A stretch of DNA of 64,000 nt. It comes from a phage. Where the stretch lies: NCBI GenBank assembly GCA_033286805.1, contig GCA_033286805.1_4727.1; one strand, 5' to 3'. Under the pieces are notes generated by a model that worked only from the letters and a program-made list of their open reading frames with translations, was not told where the DNA came from and ran no database searches. This document shows positions 3,964 through 14,404 of this stretch, in pieces. Within the stretch, counting starts at the first letter, position 1. Every line of letters begins with the position of its first letter. The translations under genes and the position numbers were made by a program.

Positions 3964-4425
3964 TTAATTCCGGTTTTGTTTCCGTATTGCACGGTTACGT
4001 TTACGTTCTTGGTCTTTGACTGTACCAAGAAACTTCTTTAATTCTGACGGTTCGAGTGTACCCTCACGTACCACACCGTTTTGTTCGATATGGTACGACC
4101 AATAACCAACTTCAGCCGTTAAGGATAACGTTGTCGGTTGTTCGTCAGGTAACGATCGGGGTGAGAAAATAAAGAGTAATTCAAAAGGCGTTTCTCGGCT
4201 GATGGTGGGACGGATACTAACGTCAAGACCCTCCCATCGCTGAGGTTTAAATATTCCTCCAGCAGCAATGATTGTCTCCGAGCGTTGATCTACAAGCTCG
4301 GCTAATTCACGATCATCGTTGAAATAAATATCGTGAAGAATATCTGTGTCGATAAAAAACCCGCGTTCCAAATCGTGACGAACAATGGAATTCTTCATTC
4401 TGCTGCCTTTGTTGTTTGTTTTCAT
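3964..4425 (-). CDS. hypothetical protein (153 aa; start uncertain, ATG also at 4398)
   Basis: ORF; no motif recognised. Confidence 0.5.
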   Translation of the reverse strand: MKTNNKGSRMKNSIVRHDLERGFFIDTDILHDIYFNDDRELAELVDQRSETIIAAGGIFKPQRWEGLDVSIRPTISRETPFELLFIFSPRSLPDEQPTTLSLTAEVGYWSYHIEQNGVVREGTLEPSELKKFLGTVKDQERKRNRAIRKQNRN

Positions 4426-4474
4426 GTCCTATACGAACACGAAAAACCGTTAATTTTTACCATAACCACATGCG

Positions 4475-4750
4475 TTAAAATTCCACACCGCGACCCGTCA
4501 TCGACGAAGGAACCGCGCGATAATAGAAGTAGATGTAATGGTCACGATGGCTAAAATAGTTTTTGCAAGCATAGAACTCTCCAGATCCAATGAATGATTT
4601 AATACGTGTAACTTGAGGGTGTCGTGCGATTAACGCCTGTATGACGATTTCCATTTGGTGTGCGCTCAAACCAGGTCGAGCTGCAACATGATAATGAAGC
4701 TCCCTAAGAAATCGTTTCCAGGGATCAGGTTGTGTCGATGATCGAGACAT
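4475..4750 (-). CDS. hypothetical protein (91 aa)
   Basis: ATG preceded by AAGGAGATAAAG; lies directly after terminator hairpin 4789..4806. Confidence 0.5.
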   Translation of the reverse strand: MSRSSTQPDPWKRFLRELHYHVAARPGLSAHQMEIVIQALIARHPQVTRIKSFIGSGEFYACKNYFSHRDHYIYFYYRAVPSSMTGRGVEF

Positions 4751-4788
4751 CTTTATCTCCTTAACGGTTGCTGGTAACGCGGCATAAA

Positions 4789-4806
4789 CCCTCCCCGAAG
4801 GGAGGG
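4789..4806 (-). terminator. intrinsic terminator hairpin (minus-sense CCCTCCC-UUCG-GGGAGGG) with TTTATGCCG tail
   Basis: 7-bp GC stem with UUCG tetraloop 11 nt after the stop of 4817..5374. Confidence 0.6.
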
Positions 4807-4816
4807 TGATTAACGA

Positions 4817-5374
4817 TTACTCCATCCATACTTCTTCGTCGTAATGATTTTCTATCGCATTACGCCAAAAACGCACGGTGTCCAAACTAATCGGCGCATA
4901 AAAATGCTGATCAACGCCGACATTAAGTCCGTTGGCCTTCGCTAACATACAGCGATGAATATGACCGAATAGATTGAAGTAGCCTGGGTTTCTTTCGCTG
5001 GGCTTATGGCATAGCCAGTAGGATTCGTCATTGCTAATCGGCAACACCAACGGATGTTCATAAACCGCAGCAAACCCCATACCGAGCAATTTATCACGCC
5101 ATGCTTCAAAGCTTAATCCTGTTGCTTTGTATGCGTCTTCGTCCCAATTCCCCAATACCAATTGAACCTGGATATCAGAACGAATGGCTTCCACGAACTC
5201 GAACTTACCCCAATCACCTAAATGCCATAACACACTGTTCTTTGGAAGCTTGTTGATGGCTTTCAGCATATGCTGGTTCATATCGGCGACGCTTGCGAAC
5301 GGACGGCGTGAATACGTCCATGTACGCTCGCTATCAAAATGGGTATCCGACATAAAGAAGATGGACGGGGTCAT
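4817..5374 (-). CDS. metallophosphoesterase (calcineurin-like, possible Ser/Thr phosphatase type), 185 aa
   Basis: Ordered metal-binding motifs SDTHF (DxH), GDWG (GD), GNWDE (GNHD/E-like), GHIH (GHxH). Confidence 0.7.
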   Translation of the reverse strand: MTPSIFFMSDTHFDSERTWTYSRRPFASVADMNQHMLKAINKLPKNSVLWHLGDWGKFEFVEAIRSDIQVQLVLGNWDEDAYKATGLSFEAWRDKLLGMGFAAVYEHPLVLPISNDESYWLCHKPSERNPGYFNLFGHIHRCMLAKANGLNVGVDQHFYAPISLDTVRFWRNAIENHYDEEVWME

Positions 5375-5853
5375 TGATCTAATTGCTCCAGAAATGCACG
5401 ACCCGATTTACTTGCTTTTAAATGCTGTTCTGCGGAAGTAAGCAGAAGATCGGTTGGTGTATATGCAGCGCTACCTTTCCACGCTGTTTTCAGTTTACCC
5501 TTTTCGATACTGAACTGAATCAGTTGTTGGGTACCGAAGTTAAGCGTGTTCGTCGCGGCGCTAAATACACCACCCATCATGCTGTAACCAAAGACTTTCA
5601 CGTTTTCCGTGTAGAAGTCATTGTCGATCAATTTGTTCTGGAGCTCGAGTTGGTCGGACGGCAGCAATCCCCCATCGAAGACGCTTAAAATACCAGCCAG
5701 GCGATACATACTCACCTTTCCTGAAACGCCCACCACGTAGTTGCCGTACACGGTTTCTTCCAGTTTAGCAACAACGGTGCGATCGTCGGAGGTTTTCATC
5801 GAAACCTCAATACCATCACCAACTTCTGTTAACGTTAAATCAACGATACTCAT
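5371..5853 (-). CDS. hypothetical protein (160 aa)
   Basis: ORF with 4-nt overlap to 4817..5374. Confidence 0.55.
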   Translation of the reverse strand: MSIVDLTLTEVGDGIEVSMKTSDDRTVVAKLEETVYGNYVVGVSGKVSMYRLAGILSVFDGGLLPSDQLELQNKLIDNDFYTENVKVFGYSMMGGVFSAATNTLNFGTQQLIQFSIEKGKLKTAWKGSAAYTPTDLLLTSAEQHLKASKSGRAFLEQLDQ

Positions 5854-5875
5854 TCATTATTCTCCGCTTTCATGT

Positions 5876-6562
5876 TTAACACATGATTTCACCATGTTTC
5901 TTTTCAACATACGTATAAACGTCATCCAAATAAGCAATGAGTTTATCACGATCCGCACAGAGCGATTTAATCATCGCAATCTCTTTCATATAAAGCTGCT
6001 GACCTAACGCCGGATAGGTAATCCAAGCGTAGCCGTCAGGCGCAAATTTAGAAATAAGATAATCGGCGGTTTCCTGTAATGCGAACTCTTTGCTCATCTG
6101 GCCGTAACGATGTTCGATTGCACGGATACCAAAACGTTCGCTATCGAGACGACCCATATCCGCCAGACGAAGCACCTGAGAAGCAACAGAACTACGTGGA
6201 CCAGAGTGCGAGGCACGATGTTCAGCAATAAGTACGCGTATCTCCTCGATGTCTTCCGGTGTGAAAATATCCTGCTCGTTACGAAGCAGGATAACCGATG
6301 CACGAATACCACCGATAAGGTGGTGGTATGTTCTGTTTTCGTGGCAAGCGATATCATGCATAAAAGCAGCGGTTAATAGACGACGACGTTCCGTGGGTCT
6401 GATGATCCCAACCACATCAGCAAGTTCATTTGCCAGTTCAACAACAGCAAGCACATGTTCTTCTTGATGTGCAAGATCGTTCTTCCGAATATTTTCAATT
6501 ACTTCAGCGCGAGTTTCCTGAGATAAGAAATTTAAACAATCCAACGAATATAAAGATTTCAT
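5876..6562 (-). CDS. HD-domain phosphohydrolase (228 aa)
   Basis: H ... FMHDIACHE ... H ... LRLADM arrangement typical of the HD superfamily; early-promoter-like motif 49 nt upstream. Confidence 0.6.
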   Translation of the reverse strand: MKSLYSLDCLNFLSQETRAEVIENIRKNDLAHQEEHVLAVVELANELADVVGIIRPTERRRLLTAAFMHDIACHENRTYHHLIGGIRASVILLRNEQDIFTPEDIEEIRVLIAEHRASHSGPRSSVASQVLRLADMGRLDSERFGIRAIEHRYGQMSKEFALQETADYLISKFAPDGYAWITYPALGQQLYMKEIAMIKSLCADRDKLIAYLDDVYTYVEKKHGEIMC

Positions 6563-6603
6563 CGCACGTACCTCTTTGAATCTATTAATAAATTTTCTTT
6601 ACT

Positions 6604-6627
6604 CACGTAAGTAATATAGCCGTGAAA
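6604..6627 (-). promoter_or_regulatory. early-promoter-like motif (minus-sense TTTCACGGCTATATTACTTACGTG)
   Basis: One of four near-identical copies, each 49-94 nt upstream of a minus-strand start codon; core TATATTAC. Confidence 0.5.
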
Positions 6628-6706
6628 GGATTTGTGTTGGTCCGTTTCGATGCCCATCGTATTTTATGGATTGTCGAATGACGTCATTTTAAGGGACATC
6701 CCCGGC

Positions 6707-6740
6707 CTCCTCCCCAGGAAAGGTGTGGGGAGGAGTTTTT
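6707..6740 (+). terminator. GC hairpin plus T5 run (plus orientation); role unclear
   Basis: ctcctcccca / tggggaggag 10-bp stem, 9-nt loop, then ttttt; no upstream plus-strand gene. Confidence 0.35.
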
Positions 6741-6770
6741 ATCATACATTCTATTAAATCGAGCGCGATT

Positions 6771-8852
6771 ATGTTGGATAGAATCAATCGTTTAATGAAC
6801 CGAATAACGGTTAAAAATCAGAGTAACAATACCGTGCATATCGGGGGTATCGATGCCTGGCGTCTTTCAGATGACATTCAGCGAATATGGGGTACCTCCC
6901 GATTTATGAAACATATGTTTCGTAATTTCTCTTCTAGTGGACTCAGTCTCCACAATTTTTACCTTCCCGATTTCGTTTATATTCTCGAAACGATCATCGA
7001 AGCAAAGAATACCCGCAGTAATAAACGCATGCTGAAACACCTTATTGAGGTACTGCTGCAGGAAACCTGGTTGCAAAATACCACAATCGAGCAACCTGCA
7101 ATCCTCGATAAAGCACGCATGAACAAAATGCTAACGCTCTCCCTGTTCGATTATCAAGATGAGTTTATCGACATCTATAACCGTAACGTACCTAAATATC
7201 GACTGAAAGGATACGTGTGTGCGATGGGTGCGGGTGCTGGTAAAACAATCACCGCATTGGCTTTAAGCGCCGCAATGAACGTCGACGTATTTGTGGTCTG
7301 CTGTCCTAAGAACACCATGCGTTCAGCATGGCAATCCGATGTAAACAAAGCCATCGTTGACCCCGCAACAGAAACCGCATTCTGGTCAGATACAATGCCA
7401 CCATCACAGCTGCAGAAAAGCGATAAGTATTATTTTCTGCATTACGAGTCGATGGGTTTATTAAACGATGTAATGATCAAGCATAAACGCACCGCGAAGC
7501 GAGTTCTTATTGTTGTTGACGAAAGCCATAACTTCAACGACAAGAACAGCCAACGTTCCCAACGACTGGTTGATCTCGTACAGACGATGCGTCAGACCAT
7601 GAATGCTGATGTTCATGTCTTGTTTATGTCGGGTACGCCTGTTAAACAAATGGGTTCTGAGATGATCCCGTGTTTAGGTTGTATTGACCCAATGTTCCAA
7701 GGACAGGTGGTCGATAGCTTCAAAGCAATTTACGGTTTAACCAGCAGTCGCGCTAACGATATCCTCAGACATCGTCTTGGGTTCATGATGCATGTCGTAC
7801 CTAAAGAGGCTTATCGTAAAACCCGTCCGGAAGTTCAGGACGTTTACGTGAAGCTCCCTAACGGTAGCGATTATACCATCTCAAGTATCCGCGACGACAT
7901 GGCGATATTTGTACGCGATCGGGCAAAGTATTACAAGGATAACTGGGGGCATTACAGAAAGATTTTTGATGACGCCTTGGACTACTATCGTAAGACTATT
8001 CGTACCGATGGTGAACGTAAAGAGCTATCTCGATACGAATCGATTGTTGCTCGTTTCCAGAAAGGTTACGACCCCGTCAGAGACAAAGAAGATGCGATGT
8101 TCTGCAACGCGTTTGAAAAACGTTCCATCATGCCGGTTCTTCCTTCCGATTTAAGGGTTGCTTTCAAAGACGCCAAGAGCGTCATCAAGTACGTTGGGTT
8201 GAAAATTCAGGGTGAAGCGTTGGCACGTGTTCTAGGTGCAGCCCGCATTCGGTGTCATGTCGACATGGTGGAGTACATCGACTTCGAAGGGTACATCAAT
8301 AACGCCGAAGCCAAAGTGTTGATCTTCACGTCGTACGTTCAGGTGGTTGAACGCGTCGACAACATGCTTCGTGATGCGGGTTTCTTACCTGAACCCATTT
8401 ACGGGAAGACCAACAAGAACATCAACCAAATACTTGCTCGTCTACGCGATGATCCTGACAGCGGTCCCGCTATCGCAACATTTGATAGCTTAGCTGAAGG
8501 GGTTCCGATGCTGATGTGTAATGTCGGCCTTTTCCTGAACAATCCATGGCGTTCATCCGATGAAATCCAAGCCATCAGCCGTCTCGATCGTGTAGGGCAA
8601 ACGCAGCCCGTTCGGATTTATCGTTTCATGTTGGATACAGGAAGCGAGGGTAACGTTTCTACACGTAGCCACGAAATCATGGAGTTAAGTCGACAGCTTG
8701 TTGAAGAAATCACGGGTGTCAAATATGTAGTGAACAAGCAAGACGATGTTAACTTGCAAGAAACGTTGGCGATGGAAGGATACGATCAATACGTTACCGT
8801 AAACACCACGGAATACGATATTAAACCGCGACCTGCATTCTTGGAATGGTGA
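6771..8852 (+). CDS. SNF2/Rad54-like superfamily-2 helicase/ATPase
   Basis: Walker A GAGAGKT, DExH box VVDESHN, motif III MSGTP, C-terminal helicase domain with Q..R..R.GQ-like motif VI (AISRLDRVGQ); start moved to ATG 6771 because the GTG at 6723 lies inside a hairpin. Confidence 0.7.
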   Translation: MLDRINRLMNRITVKNQSNNTVHIGGIDAWRLSDDIQRIWGTSRFMKHMFRNFSSSGLSLHNFYLPDFVYILETIIEAKNTRSNKRMLKHLIEVLLQETWLQNTTIEQPAILDKARMNKMLTLSLFDYQDEFIDIYNRNVPKYRLKGYVCAMGAGAGKTITALALSAAMNVDVFVVCCPKNTMRSAWQSDVNKAIVDPATETAFWSDTMPPSQLQKSDKYYFLHYESMGLLNDVMIKHKRTAKRVLIVVDESHNFNDKNSQRSQRLVDLVQTMRQTMNADVHVLFMSGTPVKQMGSEMIPCLGCIDPMFQGQVVDSFKAIYGLTSSRANDILRHRLGFMMHVVPKEAYRKTRPEVQDVYVKLPNGSDYTISSIRDDMAIFVRDRAKYYKDNWGHYRKIFDDALDYYRKTIRTDGERKELSRYESIVARFQKGYDPVRDKEDAMFCNAFEKRSIMPVLPSDLRVAFKDAKSVIKYVGLKIQGEALARVLGAARIRCHVDMVEYIDFEGYINNAEAKVLIFTSYVQVVERVDNMLRDAGFLPEPIYGKTNKNINQILARLRDDPDSGPAIATFDSLAEGVPMLMCNVGLFLNNPWRSSDEIQAISRLDRVGQTQPVRIYRFMLDTGSEGNVSTRSHEIMELSRQLVEEITGVKYVVNKQDDVNLQETLAMEGYDQYVTVNTTEYDIKPRPAFLEW

Positions 8853-8858
8853 TTAAGA

Positions 8859-8884
8859 AGCTCTGCCTGACATCAGGCAGAGCT
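8859..8884 (+). terminator. hairpin terminator after the SNF2 helicase gene
   Basis: Perfect 11-bp stem agctctgcctg / caggcagagct with 4-nt loop; weak T-rich tail. Confidence 0.45.
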
Positions 8885-8951
8885 TCATGCTGTATTTGTT
8901 GCAAGATCGTATGACGTATATGCGTTGTACTTATTTAATAAGGCAGAATAA

Positions 8952-10403
8952 ATGAAACTTAAACAAAGCTGGAAAGACGAACTTCTCGCGTTAGTAAATA
9001 GCAAAAACAGTTTACAGCTGACATTAGCCGACGTAAAATTTGAGTTAACTGAACCGGTAAGCGAAGTGCCCGGAACGGTTGTTGTTACGATCAAACCGAA
9101 CGATGATAGCCGTTACTTTAACGAGCAGTCTCTGACCTACATTCGTCGAGACATCGCTAAAAACTTCACCGGGATCCCGTTACGGGTTATCGTTAAAAAT
9201 GATACCGCCGTAAGGGATATCATCAACACGATCGCTGAACGTTACGGATTGGTATTTGACACAACCGTCGACTTCCTCGAATCCGAACTGAATAAACAAA
9301 TTACGTTCGAAGACACCGGTATTAAAGACATTACGGTTCCGGTTGCAAACACGTCTTATGTTTGGGCTGGTAATCTTCAGTTCAATATCGCTAACGATAC
9401 GTTGAGCTTGATTACGATCATCAAGCAAACCAATCTTACGAATCTGGTTTATCTGGATGGTGTTGAATCTAACACATCGGGTTCGTTACTATTAGCAACG
9501 ACCTCGGTTATCGGCGAAAACGGAAATGCCGAAACAACTGAAGGTGTCCTTGACGCCGCGTACTTCCAGAATATCCTGAACGTCATGGTTCGTTATGGTG
9601 ATATTACCAGCGAACAAATGCAACAAGCAATGCAGACAATTAACGGAAGCGAAGACGCTCGTAGAGTAGAGGTGCGGTCATACGGTGACGCCGAATTATT
9701 GGTAACCACCAAGAAAGATTGGGTTATCGGTAGCCTTAAGGGTGCTATGGTTGTTGGTCACGCTTCACCTAAACCAATCCAATACGTTCTTAAAACAAAA
9801 GGCGGCACCATTATATTGTCATTAGATGGTTGGACAAATGTCAATATCGATTGGGGTGATGGGAATAAGACGACGCAGGACTCCGGCGATAATGAATATC
9901 AGCACAATTACGCGGACACTACAGAACGTACGATCGTCGCTACGGGTACCCCTACCAACGTTGAAGATACAGACGTACAGCAAAGCTTCACCGGTGGTAA
10001 CATCACTGAAATCGTTGACTGGAACAACGGATTACCTAAGGCCCCATCATTACTTGCGGCGAACAGTTTAATTAAGGTTCCCGATTATATCCCGGCATAC
10101 TGGACATCGTTAGAAGGTATGTTTACGCGATGCAGCGCTATTAACGACGTGAACATCACCAAATGGAACACCCGCAACATTACTTCAATGAAGGACCTCT
10201 TCTACGGTTGCGCTACGTTCAACCAACCGATCGGTTCGTGGGATGTTTCGTCTGTTAAGAATGCAGACAATATGTTGTCTGGGTGCTTCGCGTTCAATCA
10301 GGATCTGAGTGGTTGGACATTCCCGGCAGGCACTTCACACATCAACTACGACGCCATGACCGCCGCATGGCAGGCTGGTTATAAACCACACTTCACCGAG
10401 TAA
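8952..10403 (+). CDS. PKD-domain plus DUF285 (BspA/Mycoplasma-type surface repeat) protein, 483 aa
   Basis: IDWGDGNKT...YQHNY (PKD WxFGDG...HxY signature); C-terminal repeats FYGCATFNQPIGSWDVSSV / GCFAFNQDLSGW matching the DUF285 repeat. Confidence 0.65.
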   Translation: MKLKQSWKDELLALVNSKNSLQLTLADVKFELTEPVSEVPGTVVVTIKPNDDSRYFNEQSLTYIRRDIAKNFTGIPLRVIVKNDTAVRDIINTIAERYGLVFDTTVDFLESELNKQITFEDTGIKDITVPVANTSYVWAGNLQFNIANDTLSLITIIKQTNLTNLVYLDGVESNTSGSLLLATTSVIGENGNAETTEGVLDAAYFQNILNVMVRYGDITSEQMQQAMQTINGSEDARRVEVRSYGDAELLVTTKKDWVIGSLKGAMVVGHASPKPIQYVLKTKGGTIILSLDGWTNVNIDWGDGNKTTQDSGDNEYQHNYADTTERTIVATGTPTNVEDTDVQQSFTGGNITEIVDWNNGLPKAPSLLAANSLIKVPDYIPAYWTSLEGMFTRCSAINDVNITKWNTRNITSMKDLFYGCATFNQPIGSWDVSSVKNADNMLSGCFAFNQDLSGWTFPAGTSHINYDAMTAAWQAGYKPHFTE

Positions 10404-10459
10404 AAAAAAAAAAATAGATAGCATATCTTCCTCCCTACCCATAACGGGCGGGGAGGAAG
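10402..10459. terminator. bidirectional terminator between convergent genes (hairpin plus A13/T13 run)
   Basis: cttcctccc / gggaggaag stem at 10427..10459; 13-A homopolymer 10402..10414 gives a T13 tract for minus-strand transcripts. Confidence 0.55.
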
Positions 10460-10476
10460 GTTTATGTCAATTTAAT

Positions 10477-10815
10477 TTAGAACCAGAGTTCTTTCATGAG
10501 GTAAGCTTCCATATCGTAGATAAGCCACTCGTCAGGGATTTCTAAAGGATCGTCTTCGGTTAAGGTCAGCATGTGCAGGGCGAACGCACGCTTAATATCG
10601 TTCAGCAGTTTTTCGTCGTCGTAACCTTCTGGTAGTTTACGGTCTACCAGCTGGGTTTGTTTATAGACATCGCGGAATGCTTCAGGGCTGTGTTTGTCCA
10701 TCGGAAATTGTTCAGCAGCCTGAACCATAGAAAGCGTCCAGCTTACAACATTGTAACGCTCACCGTTAATTTCACTGAACTGATCATCGATTAAACAGAT
10801 TTGTTGTACATTCAT
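10477..10815 (-). CDS. hypothetical acidic protein (112 aa)
   Basis: ORF convergent with 8952..10403; terminator between them. Confidence 0.5.
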   Translation of the reverse strand: MNVQQICLIDDQFSEINGERYNVVSWTLSMVQAAEQFPMDKHSPEAFRDVYKQTQLVDRKLPEGYDDEKLLNDIKRAFALHMLTLTEDDPLEIPDEWLIYDMEAYLMKELWF

Positions 10816-11705
10816 TCATTTTCTCCATTCTTATCTTGGTCGCAATCACACTCTTCGACGTCTTTCTTACTTAAACGTAAGACGCCGAGTGCGGCATGCT
10901 TGAGTTCTTGCAACGCGCTTTTCAGCTGACCTTCTTCATCGAAATCAAAATACTTCTCGTTGTAGCTTAACGCTGGAATCATATTTACGAGAGGTTCGAT
11001 GGCGGGCATCAGCATTTCAATGACGACCTTAGGATCAACAAAGCGTTCGAACCCTTCAGGAAGTTTGCTCGCTACAACCTTATCGTTTTTGATGTAGAAT
11101 TTGTTCTTGAACAAATCGTCAAGAATAGCATTCTCTTCATCCGTACGTTTTGCGTGAGGACGATCGATCATCTGCACAAACACATCGCTCAACGCTTCAG
11201 GCAACGTCGGATTTTCACGAAGATAAGTTCCGGCTGGAATTTCAATATCGATCTTCGTCCACTCAACAACCTGGTGGTCTCGCGTATAGATGACGTCAAC
11301 TTCCCATGCCAGGCCATCAGCGCTTTCTACGGTGTAACGTGTTTTCGCCTGGCCTTCAGGAGCCATGCGTTCGATCGCGTCAAACATCTCGACTGGGATT
11401 TCGACTTCGCTTTCCGTCGCATCACCTGGACCACGATACACCTTCGTGGTCATGATGTATTTCGGCTCTTCGTTATCGATCTGGATCGCACGTGCGCGCA
11501 CCTGACCTTTCACGCCACCAACGGCCGTGTTATCAAACAACCACTGATGTTGCACCATATGTTCGATTTTTGATGCGACTTGACGAAGACGTTCAACACC
11601 GTCTTCAGCCAGTTTACCAAAGAAGACCAGCTCACGTTCCTGCTGTGTCTCACCACTTAACATCATTAAATTGGCGATTTGTTTCACGCCTCTTACTTGT
11701 GACAT
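10812..11705 (-). CDS. hypothetical protein (297 aa)
   Basis: Long ORF; 4-nt overlap with downstream gene. Confidence 0.6.
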   Translation of the reverse strand: MSQVRGVKQIANLMMLSGETQQERELVFFGKLAEDGVERLRQVASKIEHMVQHQWLFDNTAVGGVKGQVRARAIQIDNEEPKYIMTTKVYRGPGDATESEVEIPVEMFDAIERMAPEGQAKTRYTVESADGLAWEVDVIYTRDHQVVEWTKIDIEIPAGTYLRENPTLPEALSDVFVQMIDRPHAKRTDEENAILDDLFKNKFYIKNDKVVASKLPEGFERFVDPKVVIEMLMPAIEPLVNMIPALSYNEKYFDFDEEGQLKSALQELKHAALGVLRLSKKDVEECDCDQDKNGENE

Positions 11706-11773: not shown

Positions 11774-14404
11774 TTACAATTCAAAATCTTCATCGATAAC
11801 ACGCTGGGTAAGCACTTTGTCGCTGAAGAACTCCACCTTGCGCTGATGGTATTTACGGTGCGCTTCGATAGAAGTACATACCAGATACCAGAACGTTGGC
11901 GTCATTCCTTCAAACTTCCCTTTCAGCTGACGCAGTCGTCCCAACACCTGAATGTTGCCGGTTCGTGACCCCATCGCTAACGTCATGAACGTCATCACCA
12001 AGTCAGGAAGGTCGATACCGGTACCTGCCGATTTCACGGTTGTAACGCTAATATCGTTATCCAGCAAGACCATGAAATCTTCTTCAGCAGTATAAGGACC
12101 GATCTCTAGCTCAGGAATACGTTCACTGAGATAATGCGACAACGACTTACACATATCAACGGTTGCACAATACACCAGCATCTTCATACCTTCCTGATAC
12201 TGGTTCATAAAACCTTTGATAATAACGGTATAGATGAAGTTAAAGTACGCGAGTTTGAGTTGCTTGTTCTTCATGATAGACTGTTCAAATATCGTGTGCG
12301 AATAAGCTCCACCAAACCCTTTGTATCTGACTTTATCTGTACTGCGTAGTCGATATGTTACCGCATTTACCGCAATGTATTTCTTGTATTCGCCTTTCGC
12401 ATAACGGGCTTCTTTCGGATACATCAAATACAGCATCTGTTCGATAAACGGATCATCGGATACCGCTGTTGCCGACAGATAAATGATTTCCGGAATATTG
12501 GCGTAACACTTGACCTTAAACAAGAAATGCAATGCTTCGTGACACTCGTCATGAATCAGCAAACCTATGCCGGTCTTTTCCCAAAACTCAGCGGGATGGA
12601 AGGCATATGGCGCAACGCAGTTATTCTTCTCGTAGTCCGCAATATAACGTTGGAACATGTTCAAGGAGAACAATGCGATTTTGAAGTCGAGTTCACCCTG
12701 TTCAACCAAGGTTTGAAACTCCAGCATGCTGTAACGAGGAATGTCGGGATGCGGTGGATCCTCCTTAGCGTTCCCGCGTATCTCGATAACATCCCCTGGT
12801 TCCATCCCGAAGAAGTTCAGCAGCGAGCTTCGCCAACCTGGCATATACCGTGGAGAAAGTATAATGCCTGTGCGCACACCCCGTCTAAACACGATTTCCT
12901 GCGACATCGCGGTGTTGTGTGTGACGATAAAGTCTTTCACCACAAACAACGCTGAAGGATCATCGATCGTAATGCAACGTGCATCCGCAACACGGGAAGG
13001 TTTGATTGACAGTACACGCAGCATACTTTCGAAGTATTGTCCGTCGACAGGACAACGTTCCAGCTTCTTCGGAAGTGTAACGATTTCATGTGGACGTTTA
13101 TACCGTATCGTAACCATGTACGCCAATCGTCCCTTATGTCTTTCCCCCTTGTAGGTGTAATACGGTTGTTTAATACGTAGACGAGCATATCCACCGATCG
13201 AACGAACCAAGTAGATAACGTCATCTGAAAGCTGTTTGCTCGAAGTACAGAAAACAATAGATCCGCCTTTATCTACCGTTCCGTCGGTATCGATAAGACC
13301 TGCAAGTATTTCGCAACGCTGTCTATGCGACGCCATCATGTACTGTTTCGGAACAAACTTCTCCCAGGCTCGTTTACCCATCAACCCCAACTGATCAAGC
13401 GCGGATGCTGTCTCCGACCGCCCACCGTAATTGATTAACGTTGCGGCAGGCGTCTTCGTTACCGCATAGTCGTATTTGTCACGGTACTGTATTTCACAGT
13501 CATCAGGAAGACGACTTAACACCTTATTCAAGATGAAATCGTCAGGAGTTGTAATGATTGGAGATGTCGTTAAATGACCGTCCCCTAACAGAACACCAAG
13601 CACGTACGGATCAAGCGGTAAATCTGCATCAGGAGTATCCTCAGACTCACAATACGGAATGTAAAGTCGTTTATTGGACAGCTCCAGGATACGAATCATC
13701 TCAAGTGTATTGATAACCCGCATGGGATAAGGATTGTTTTTGTCCCATCCCCAGTTAGGTCTCATGCACGCCCAGAGATGCTCGCCGCAGGCTTCAACAC
13801 GACGACCGTCAGCAAAGACAATCTCATAGAGCTGTTTTGCTTTATGGTCGAAGATATTGGTTACCTTCGTTGGTCGGCCATTAGCAGCCGTGATGGTATC
13901 ACCTAGCTTCAAATCGCCTAATTGACGCCATCCGCCAGGGACTTTTACGAGCGTGGTAAGCGGATTCGCTTTACCAGACCCCGTTTGAGCGGTGTTTAGG
14001 CTCATTCTGAAGGGGGTATCCTTACCCCCGTTCATGTACTCCAGCCATTCTTGTTGATCTTCACGCCACGGAAACTTCCATTTCTTTACGAACTCCACTT
14101 CCTTACCTGGTACCGGATCGTGATAAACGATTTCCAACCACTCTTTTCGGATTCCTCGAGAGAAGATAAAATCCAAAAACGATTTCAACTGTTCGCGGAG
14201 TAAGTATACCTCGCTATAATCGCTTCTCGCTGCGGCGTAGGTGTTAATGGTATCGGTGACCATTCTCCGTGTACGAGGGTCGCGTCGTTTCCGTAGATGC
14301 AAACAACGGTCTCGAAGGTAATGGCCAATCAAATGGGCAAATCGAAGTCCGTATCCGCTCAGCCTCATGCCATGCGAGAAGACGTCGATACGAGCTAACT
14401 TCAT
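11774..14404 (-). CDS. SF2 DEAH-type helicase interrupted by an intein (876-aa precursor; mature helicase about 524 aa)
   Basis: Extein halves TGSGK / T reconstitute a P-loop GSGKT after removing residues 146-497; downstream DECH box and SAT motif; ATGA overlap with upstream RNAP gene. Confidence 0.75.
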   Translation of the reverse strand: MKLARIDVFSHGMRLSGYGLRFAHLIGHYLRDRCLHLRKRRDPRTRRMVTDTINTYAAARSDYSEVYLLREQLKSFLDFIFSRGIRKEWLEIVYHDPVPGKEVEFVKKWKFPWREDQQEWLEYMNGGKDTPFRMSLNTAQTGSGKANPLTTLVKVPGGWRQLGDLKLGDTITAANGRPTKVTNIFDHKAKQLYEIVFADGRRVEACGEHLWACMRPNWGWDKNNPYPMRVINTLEMIRILELSNKRLYIPYCESEDTPDADLPLDPYVLGVLLGDGHLTTSPIITTPDDFILNKVLSRLPDDCEIQYRDKYDYAVTKTPAATLINYGGRSETASALDQLGLMGKRAWEKFVPKQYMMASHRQRCEILAGLIDTDGTVDKGGSIVFCTSSKQLSDDVIYLVRSIGGYARLRIKQPYYTYKGERHKGRLAYMVTIRYKRPHEIVTLPKKLERCPVDGQYFESMLRVLSIKPSRVADARCITIDDPSALFVVKDFIVTHNTAMSQEIVFRRGVRTGIILSPRYMPGWRSSLLNFFGMEPGDVIEIRGNAKEDPPHPDIPRYSMLEFQTLVEQGELDFKIALFSLNMFQRYIADYEKNNCVAPYAFHPAEFWEKTGIGLLIHDECHEALHFLFKVKCYANIPEIIYLSATAVSDDPFIEQMLYLMYPKEARYAKGEYKKYIAVNAVTYRLRSTDKVRYKGFGGAYSHTIFEQSIMKNKQLKLAYFNFIYTVIIKGFMNQYQEGMKMLVYCATVDMCKSLSHYLSERIPELEIGPYTAEEDFMVLLDNDISVTTVKSAGTGIDLPDLVMTFMTLAMGSRTGNIQVLGRLRQLKGKFEGMTPTFWYLVCTSIEAHRKYHQRKVEFFSDKVLTQRVIDEDFEL
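12914..13969 (-). mobile_element. intein (352 aa) with LAGLIDADG homing endonuclease; class-3-like (Ala1, WCT triad)
   Basis: Hint block A-like N-terminus TLVKVPGG...GD...NGRP; two LAGLIDADG motifs (LGVLLGDGHL, ILAGLIDTDG); C-terminal FIVTHN followed by Thr+1; residue 1 is Ala; Trp in GEHLW, Cys in ARCITIDD and Thr before HN fit the class-3 WCT pattern. Confidence 0.65.

Follow-up and report, generated by a model that had tools for sequence, protein, structure and literature searches.

A probable virion adhesin subunit of a Goslar-like jumbo phage joins a DUF7941 module to a DUF285 solenoid

A 64,000-nucleotide stretch of phage DNA (here called the window) was found to encode a protein that is probably, at roughly two chances in three, a virion-associated accessory fiber or adhesin subunit of a Goslar-like jumbo phage (Chimalliviridae), built from a DUF7941 anchor and an exchangeable ligand-binding head. 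The evidence obtained from the window consists of the domain architecture of the protein, the LRR fold of its modeled C terminus, its paralogy to Goslar gp22 and phiKZ gp127, a conserved locus, and the replacement of a C-terminal cassette. From the literature come the presence of the orthologue in virions, the filaments formed by gp22, and the position of phiKZ gp127 at the peripheral baseplate. The gene is genuine and coherent, but it has been annotated and described before, as Goslar gp161, and the main contribution of the present analysis is a corrected domain call and evolutionary detail.

The open reading frame lies exactly at the position and on the strand given in the initial annotation (Table 1). 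Over positions 8000 to 11000 (a 3-kb query), the window was 96.8% identical at the nucleotide level to Escherichia phage vB_EcoM_Goslar, a 237-kb nucleus-forming jumbo phage of E. coli, with matching gene order around the target; the window is a close relative of Goslar, and this identity and gene order place the window among the chimalliviruses (nucleus-forming jumbo phages). The orthologue, Goslar gp161 (YP_009820846.1/QBO63954.1), was 96.3% identical to the window protein across all 483 residues and occupies the same locus: gp160 (the SNF2 helicase) and gp162 are its neighbors, and the same hairpins flank it. Of the 18 substitutions in the window protein, 5 are in the last 16 residues (468 to 480). 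As the initial annotation had stated, the target is directly downstream of an SNF2 helicase and on a plus-strand island: the adjacent 5' gene (693 to 709 amino acids) matched ResIII (47.4 bits), SNF2-rel_dom (31.9 bits), Helicase_C (30 bits), and phrog_62 (“DNA helicase”), and the helicase and the target form a small plus-strand pair with minus-strand genes on both sides. The order HD hydrolase, SNF2 helicase, target, gp162 and gp163 homologues, and SF2 helicase was kept in both relatives examined. In the Goslar annotation, gp161 has genes of replication and transcription around it and is distant from the structural clusters.

Table 1. Features of the target gene and its flanks (positions in the window)
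Feature	Position	Strand	Basis and properties
Stable hairpin with a 13-bp stem, between the helicase stop and the target	8857..8886	+	dG -25.8 kcal/mol, z -5.4, 0/200 shuffles as stable; Goslar annotation has “terminator” at the equivalent position
Complete CDS, 483 aa, orthologue of Goslar gp161 (YP_009820846.1)	8952..10403	+	ORF list; 96.3% aa and 96.8% nt identity; 18 aa differences
DUF7941 N-terminal globular domain and conserved linker strand (…GSLLLAT), residues 1-183	8952..9500	+	PF25613; phrog_1037; gp22/gp127 similarity; 88-97% same-locus identity
Helical and beta region, start of the variable cassette, residues 184-272	9501..9767	+	AF2 pLDDT 74-95; helices 202-237, strands 238-271
PKD-like “WGDG…HxY” beta-strand leader before the DUF285 repeats, residues 273-345	9768..9986	+	Motif; sub-threshold PKD matches; leader profile; most variable segment of the protein
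LRR-type solenoid, residues 346-466: two degenerate turns, then three canonical 25-26-aa DUF285/PARCEL repeats (389-466, nt 10116-10349)	9987..10349	+	
Variable C-terminal tail, residues 467-483, and stop codon	10350..10403	+	5 of 18 Goslar differences in residues 468-480
Strong hairpin between the convergent target and gp162 homologue	10425..10460		dG -29.8 kcal/mol (+, z -6.6) and -26.1 kcal/mol (-, z -4.5)

Several further observations concern the locus and its relatives. The start of the SNF2 helicase (6723-8852) is uncertain: the mechanical open reading frame from a GTG at 6723 gives 709 amino acids, the Goslar annotation uses an ATG equivalent to 6771/6772 (693 amino acids), and the call in a 238.6-kb relative (L005) is 648 amino acids. 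The gp162 and gp163 homologues (10477-10815 and 10812-11705, both minus strand), 3' of the target, had no Pfam family, and the sole match of the gp163 homologue was phrog_14791, a PHROG of unknown function (E=1.5e-18); both genes were present at the target locus in all relatives examined. Near-complete Goslar-like contigs of ~235 to 243 kb were found in assemblies labeled Escherichia coli, Salmonella enterica, Shigella flexneri, Shigella sonnei, and Enterobacter hormaechei and in many metagenomes, and Goslar-like jumbo phages thus appear to be widespread and co-sequenced with enteric isolates.

An intein was encountered in the neighboring SF2/RAD2-type helicase, the Goslar gp164 homologue (11774-14404, minus strand), which has 876 amino acids versus 524 in Goslar. 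The Walker A motif is interrupted (GSGK|T) by an insert of ~350 amino acids (~12917-13966), whose first residue is Ala and whose last residues are …THN, with Thr next. The insert bears a LAGLIDADG homing-endonuclease domain (LAGLIDADG_3, 28.4 bits versus a cutoff of 22.5); it is an intein, absent from Goslar. In L005, a 753-amino-acid version of the helicase (7823-10084 of that genome, minus strand) carries an intein at the same Walker A site, with splicing-domain ends ~70% identical to those of the window and a shorter, different middle. Because Goslar, L005, and the window differ, the intein content at this Walker A site varies among Goslar-like phages (absent, ~229 amino acids, or ~350 amino acids).

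Two very stable hairpins bracket the target gene (Table 1), which is consistent with an independent transcription unit and speaks against a functional operon with the helicase. The upstream hairpin probably separates the transcription units of the helicase and the target, and with this strong hairpin between the two genes, no functional link between them was indicated. At the other end, a run of 13 A residues (10402-10414) overlaps the stop codon of the target upstream of the second hairpin, and on the minus strand a U13 run lies a few bases past that hairpin, for the convergent gp162-homologue gene; the hairpin is probably a bidirectional terminator. A sigma-70 promoter scan returned 7 sites versus 8.5 expected and thus no enrichment. 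Goslar-like phages use their own RNA polymerases. TATG motifs were present upstream of the target gene.

The strongest domain signal in the target protein was DUF7941 (PF25613; residues 4 to 209, 88.1 bits versus a cutoff of 27), an N-terminal module that the initial annotation had overlooked. Among 35 aligned relatives (alignment A1), 28 likewise matched DUF7941, and the N-terminal region also matched phrog_1037, “virion structural protein.” Paralogy to characterized DUF7941 members was evident in sequence: residues 1 to 180 were 35% identical to Goslar gp22 over 191 amino acids (E=5e-29), a profile of the Goslar DUF7941 paralogues and the target matched PDB chain 9xqd_0, “PHIKZ127” (E=1.3e-11), and the conserved “IIK.T.L..L.Y” and linker motifs of DUF7941 were kept in the target. 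The other Goslar DUF7941 genes lie outside the 64-kb window, and phmmer searches for paralogues within the window, made with three parts of the protein separately, returned self-hits only. The AF2 model of residues 1 to 175 was poor (pLDDT 30 to 60), too weak for a comparison of folds or of docking mode. Residues 1 to 183 are taken to be the module that attaches the protein to the virion or to a filament, and this module best explains how the target protein joins the virion.

The same N-terminal module is found in Goslar gp22 and gp23 and in phiKZ gp126 and gp127, but gp22, gp23, and gp127 have no part other than DUF7941 and are the bulk subunits (gp22, ~580 copies; gp23, ~2140 copies), whereas the target, at ~110 copies, adds a head of 300 residues in which a PKD-like leader precedes a DUF285 solenoid. 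It also differs from classical trimeric tail fiber or tailspike receptor-binding proteins: no fiber, tailspike, or intramolecular-chaperone domain (e.g., Phage_fiber_2 or Peptidase_S74) was found in it with Pfam and PHROG, and such recognizable domains are present in a neighbor gene of a paralogue locus, described below.

The Goslar virion is the subject of a recent bioRxiv preprint, which combines a cryo-EM structure with quantitative proteomics (Basu et al., April 2026; 10.64898/2026.04.21.720040). Ten DUF7941 proteins of Goslar were reported (gp22, 23, 31, 33, 34, 86, 91, 92, 93, and 161), of which gp161 was detected in purified virions by 27 peptides with 53.8% coverage, with low, median, and high estimates of 74, 111, and 174 copies per virion, respectively (Table S4); a tryptic peptide covering its C-terminal tail was also seen in the virion mass spectrometry (10.64898/2026.04.21.720040). 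Purified gp22 formed filaments in negative-stain EM, AlphaFold predicted head-to-tail oligomers of DUF7941 proteins, and phiKZ gp127 was located at the outer peripheral baseplate; no DUF7941 density was seen in the map of the Goslar peripheral baseplate, and the authors proposed a baseplate-anchored “DUF7941 fiber cloud” for host recognition (10.64898/2026.04.21.720040). With the orthologue in virions and a proposed role in host recognition, the suggestion in the initial annotation of a virion or host-surface binding protein fits the evidence (10.64898/2026.04.21.720040).

Combined with the architecture described here, these reports suggest the following mechanism. The DUF7941 module would incorporate the target into DUF7941 assemblies, which are proposed to extend from the peripheral baseplate and in which gp22 and gp23, docked head to tail, would be the main components, a filament model that rests on the preprint and on AlphaFold predictions. 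The C-terminal 300 residues, comprising the helical and beta region, the PKD-like leader, and the short DUF285 solenoid of LRR type, would form an exchangeable cassette, which would be displayed as a ligand-binding head, establish initial contact with the surface of the host cell, and thereby contribute to adsorption and host range. Both the entry of gp161 itself into DUF7941 filaments and its binding of a ligand on the host surface are what we infer from this combination. Mass spectrometry gives no location for gp161 in the particle, which counts against this mechanism, as do the lack of DUF7941 density in the Goslar map and the setting of the gene among replication and transcription genes. 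In a different account, the protein would be carried inside the virion and injected, with its LRR solenoid binding an intracellular host protein in the manner of the LRR domains of IpaH, SspH1, and XopL and without any surface binding. Such a packaged effector is considered unlikely and ranks below the virion adhesin.

The pattern of variation along the protein bears directly on the adhesin reading. Among 54 orthologues of the same length, residues 1 to 175 averaged 96% identity to the query, and residues 273 to 345 had the lowest identity (73%). When the comparison was split at the conserved linker strand (…GSLxLAT, residue 183), same-locus orthologues were 88 to 97% identical in the N-terminal module and from 81% down to 40% identical in the C-terminal cassette; the corresponding values for true paralogues were 55 to 59% and 38 to 48%. 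The cassettes found at the same locus were therefore as divergent as those of true paralogues. In L005, nucleotide identity to the window was 93% over positions 3964 to 9499, up to codon 183; positions 9500 to 10404 had no detectable nucleotide similarity except in a 24-nucleotide island (9845-9868); and identity was back at 90% from 10405, immediately past the stop codon. Since similarity drops at 9500 and resumes at 10405, the boundaries of the replaced cassette are sharp. Judged from these alignments, the pattern points to the C-terminal 300 residues as a replaced cassette of the kind typical of receptor-binding proteins. Its first part, residues 184 to 272, aligned weakly with the C-terminal part of DUF7941 paralogues (gp22, gp31, gp33, and gp34; alignment A3) and was 39 to 53% identical in diverged orthologues. 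The island encodes NIDWGDGN and was 100% identical in L005 inside an otherwise dissimilar cassette of 900 nucleotides; it could reflect strong constraint on the motif or serve as a recombination anchor.

Not every related gene belongs to this locus. A 584-amino-acid class with DUF7941 and additional DUF285 repeats was considered as a same-locus allele and rejected, being a paralogue at a second locus of the same genome; that locus adjoins another DUF7941 gene and a 967-amino-acid tail-fiber gene, and Goslar has no such copy. Synteny with the helicase in other chimallivirus genera was likewise rejected: the nearest relative in Erwinia phage EarlPhillipIV is in an array of virion structural paralogues, and that in Serratia phage PCH45 is among unannotated plus-strand genes with no helicase annotated nearby.

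A displayed head need not bind bacteria. It might instead be an environmental adherence decoration, with the DUF285 head binding animal mucus or matrix glycans or other non-host surfaces, as proposed for the Hoc Ig-like domains (“bacteriophage adherence to mucus”), and promoting gut enrichment without recognition of the bacterial host. Most DUF285 and BspA-type repeat proteins carry annotations as surface proteins of microbes associated with hosts, Goslar came from duck dung and its relatives appear in enteric isolates and metagenomes, and the copy number is high (~110 per virion), all of which would suit such a role. Against it, the diversity of cassettes among very close phages fits variable bacterial surfaces better than conserved animal glycans, and the same module occurs in phages without a mucosal niche, namely, those of marine Synechococcus, Vibrio, and Shewanella. 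Adherence of this kind is improbable and, like the injected effector, less likely than a virion adhesin.

Within the cassette, the initial annotation had named two parts, a PKD-like Ig fold and DUF285 repeats. For the first, the motif IDWGDGNK…YQHNY is real (IDWGDGNKTTQDSGDNEYQHNY at residues 299 to 320, with the signature WxxGDG…HxY), but a PKD domain was not recovered at significance: the protein had no match to PF00801 or PF18911 at E<=1, and the isolated segment had no Pfam match of any kind at E<=10. Sub-threshold PKD matches were found in 11 of the 35 members of alignment A1 that were scanned (13 to 21 bits versus cutoffs of 23.5 and 27), each covering ~40 of the 80 to 85 profile positions; the best relative reached 21.1 bits versus 27 for PKD_4 and 19.7 versus 23.5 for PKD. 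In an alignment of the leader from 18 diverse sequences (A4), the W, G, D, H, and Y positions were invariant, and W301 and G302 were nearly invariant in the family. The six best matches of the A4 profile in the PDB were genuine PKD domains, at marginal E values of 0.0035 to 0.05 over profile positions 23 to 71, and included the M. mazei S-layer protein (1l0q), the ColH collagenase (full-length and isolated PKD entries), and SorCS2. The strand order of the AF2 model of residues 236 to 483 was compatible with PKD strands A-B-C-C'-E-F, and the core motif WxxGDG…HxY…YTVT is common to the target and to PKD domains (PF00801/PF18911; ColH PKD 4u6t and M. mazei S-layer 1l0q). Unrelated cellular proteins with DUF285 repeats (P0112, twice; P0114; P0117, from an archaeon; and P0120) also had the WGDG…HxY motif, placed 85 to 120 amino acids before the first repeat. 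On these sequence comparisons, our reading of residues 273 to 345 is that of a PKD-like, possibly PKD-derived leader that travels with DUF285 arrays rather than a demonstrable PKD domain.

The assignment of DUF285 was upheld: PF03382 matched residues 385 to 456 with E=7.9e-22 and 77.7 bits (cutoff, 25), and the 26-residue TIGR02167 “PARCEL” repeat model of NCBIfam matched marginally (30.3 bits versus a cutoff of 30). Three canonical repeats (389-414, 415-440, and 441-466) have W405, W430, and W455 in register and are preceded by two degenerate turns marked by W357 and W384; the curated cutoffs were passed, and the tandem units of ~25 to 26 residues have the conserved F, N, and W positions. In alignment A1, F417, W430, M441, F448, and W455 were invariant. 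The full-length AF2 model had a mean pLDDT of 74 and was good for residues 180 to 483, residues 236 to 483 modeled alone reached a pLDDT of 88 and a pTM of 0.82, and the modeled C terminus had an LRR solenoid fold. PDB sequences gave no meaningful matches either to the protein itself in phmmer or to the full-length family profile (A1), no solved DUF285/PARCEL structure was found by sequence search of the PDB, and Foldseek searches of the PDB with the full-length and C-terminal models returned nothing below E = 0.1; the matches to CBM86, cupin, and alpha-galactosidase structures (TM-score <0.35) were rejected as noise.

The target and cellular DUF285/PARCEL proteins belong to the same repeat family, with scores above the curated cutoffs, and several cellular members have the WGDG…HxY leader before the array, but they have at least 10 repeats versus the 3 canonical repeats of the target. 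Those of Mycoplasma and Listeria differ further in that the target has no signal peptide, lipobox, or wall anchor and is fused to a phage-specific virion module. No cell-surface targeting signal of these types was found in the target, whose N terminus is hydrophilic (maximum 19-residue hydropathy, 0.92); because a signal peptide and a hydrophobic segment are missing, it is not a cellular surface lipoprotein, despite its RefSeq name. The “BspA family” in that name is a fold-level label, since the window protein had no Pfam match to LRR_5 (PF13306) and is only 11% identical in sequence to BspA-type LRR proteins such as BACOVA_04585 (PDB 4fs7); 4 of the 35 relatives matched LRR_5, at most at 18.7 bits versus a cutoff of 27.7. 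None of the DUF285 proteins has a known ligand (PMC2996958), which also counts against the adhesin mechanism.

The view that such repeats are unusual in enterobacterial-type phages was not sustained. In tblastn searches, the segment with WGDG and DUF285 matched 108 phage records; among the matches listed, most were records of >200 kb, and Serratia, Klebsiella, Erwinia, Edwardsiella, and Kosakonia phages were included, together with Vibrio, Aeromonas, and Synechococcus phages and Lak megaphages. Citrobacter and Pantoea phages were further matches of the full-length query. With several phages of enterobacterial hosts matched, the statement fails for jumbo phages. Recent horizontal acquisition, also raised in the initial annotation, fared no better when GC and codon usage were compared with those of 60 window genes: GC content (0.455), GC at third positions (GC3, 0.504), and codon adaptation (CAI, 0.752) had z values of -0.12, 0.71, and 0.44, respectively, all within 1 standard deviation, and so gave no compositional sign of recent acquisition. 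The conserved locus in relatives also counts against it.

In its strongest form, acquisition would make the gene a “moron,” a cellular adhesin gene recently captured by horizontal transfer and without a virion role. The punctate occurrence of DUF285 in bacteria, archaea, eukaryotic microbes, and viruses suggests horizontal spread (PMC2996958), and the target is bracketed by hairpins on a small plus-strand island, as a captured gene might be. Yet its GC, GC3, and CAI are typical of the window, its N-terminal third is a chimallivirus-specific domain, its locus is kept in relatives with orthologues 59 to 99% identical to the window protein, its orthologue is abundant in virions, and the nearest cellular DUF285 proteins are at most ~36% identical over the common part. 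The capture of a cellular gene is therefore largely refuted already; it is highly improbable and ranks well below the virion adhesin.

The preprint's proposal of host recognition is a general one, to which the present analysis adds the boundaries of the cassette and the unit of leader and solenoid. Tentatively, and at somewhat less than even odds, the gp161 locus may be a dedicated site for host-range cassettes, at which a fixed DUF7941 anchor (residues 1 to 183) takes swappable heads of PKD-like leader and DUF285 solenoid, with recombination where the linker strand ends and at the stop codon; the pair of leader and solenoid would perhaps be an old mobile adhesion unit common to cellular surface proteins and jumbo phages. 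If so, non-fiber LRR heads on self-assembling filaments would constitute a mode of host recognition distinct from that of trimeric fibers.

Chimalliviruses are candidates for phage therapy that resist DNA-targeting defenses. The determinants of host recognition in chimalliviruses such as phiKZ and Goslar are poorly defined, and gp161, one of only three Goslar DUF7941 proteins with an obvious binding or hydrolase head, adds to this picture. The sharp boundary of its cassette offers a natural, engineerable site for changing host range, and the protein gives an experimental handle on the DUF285/PARCEL repeats, a very widespread family.
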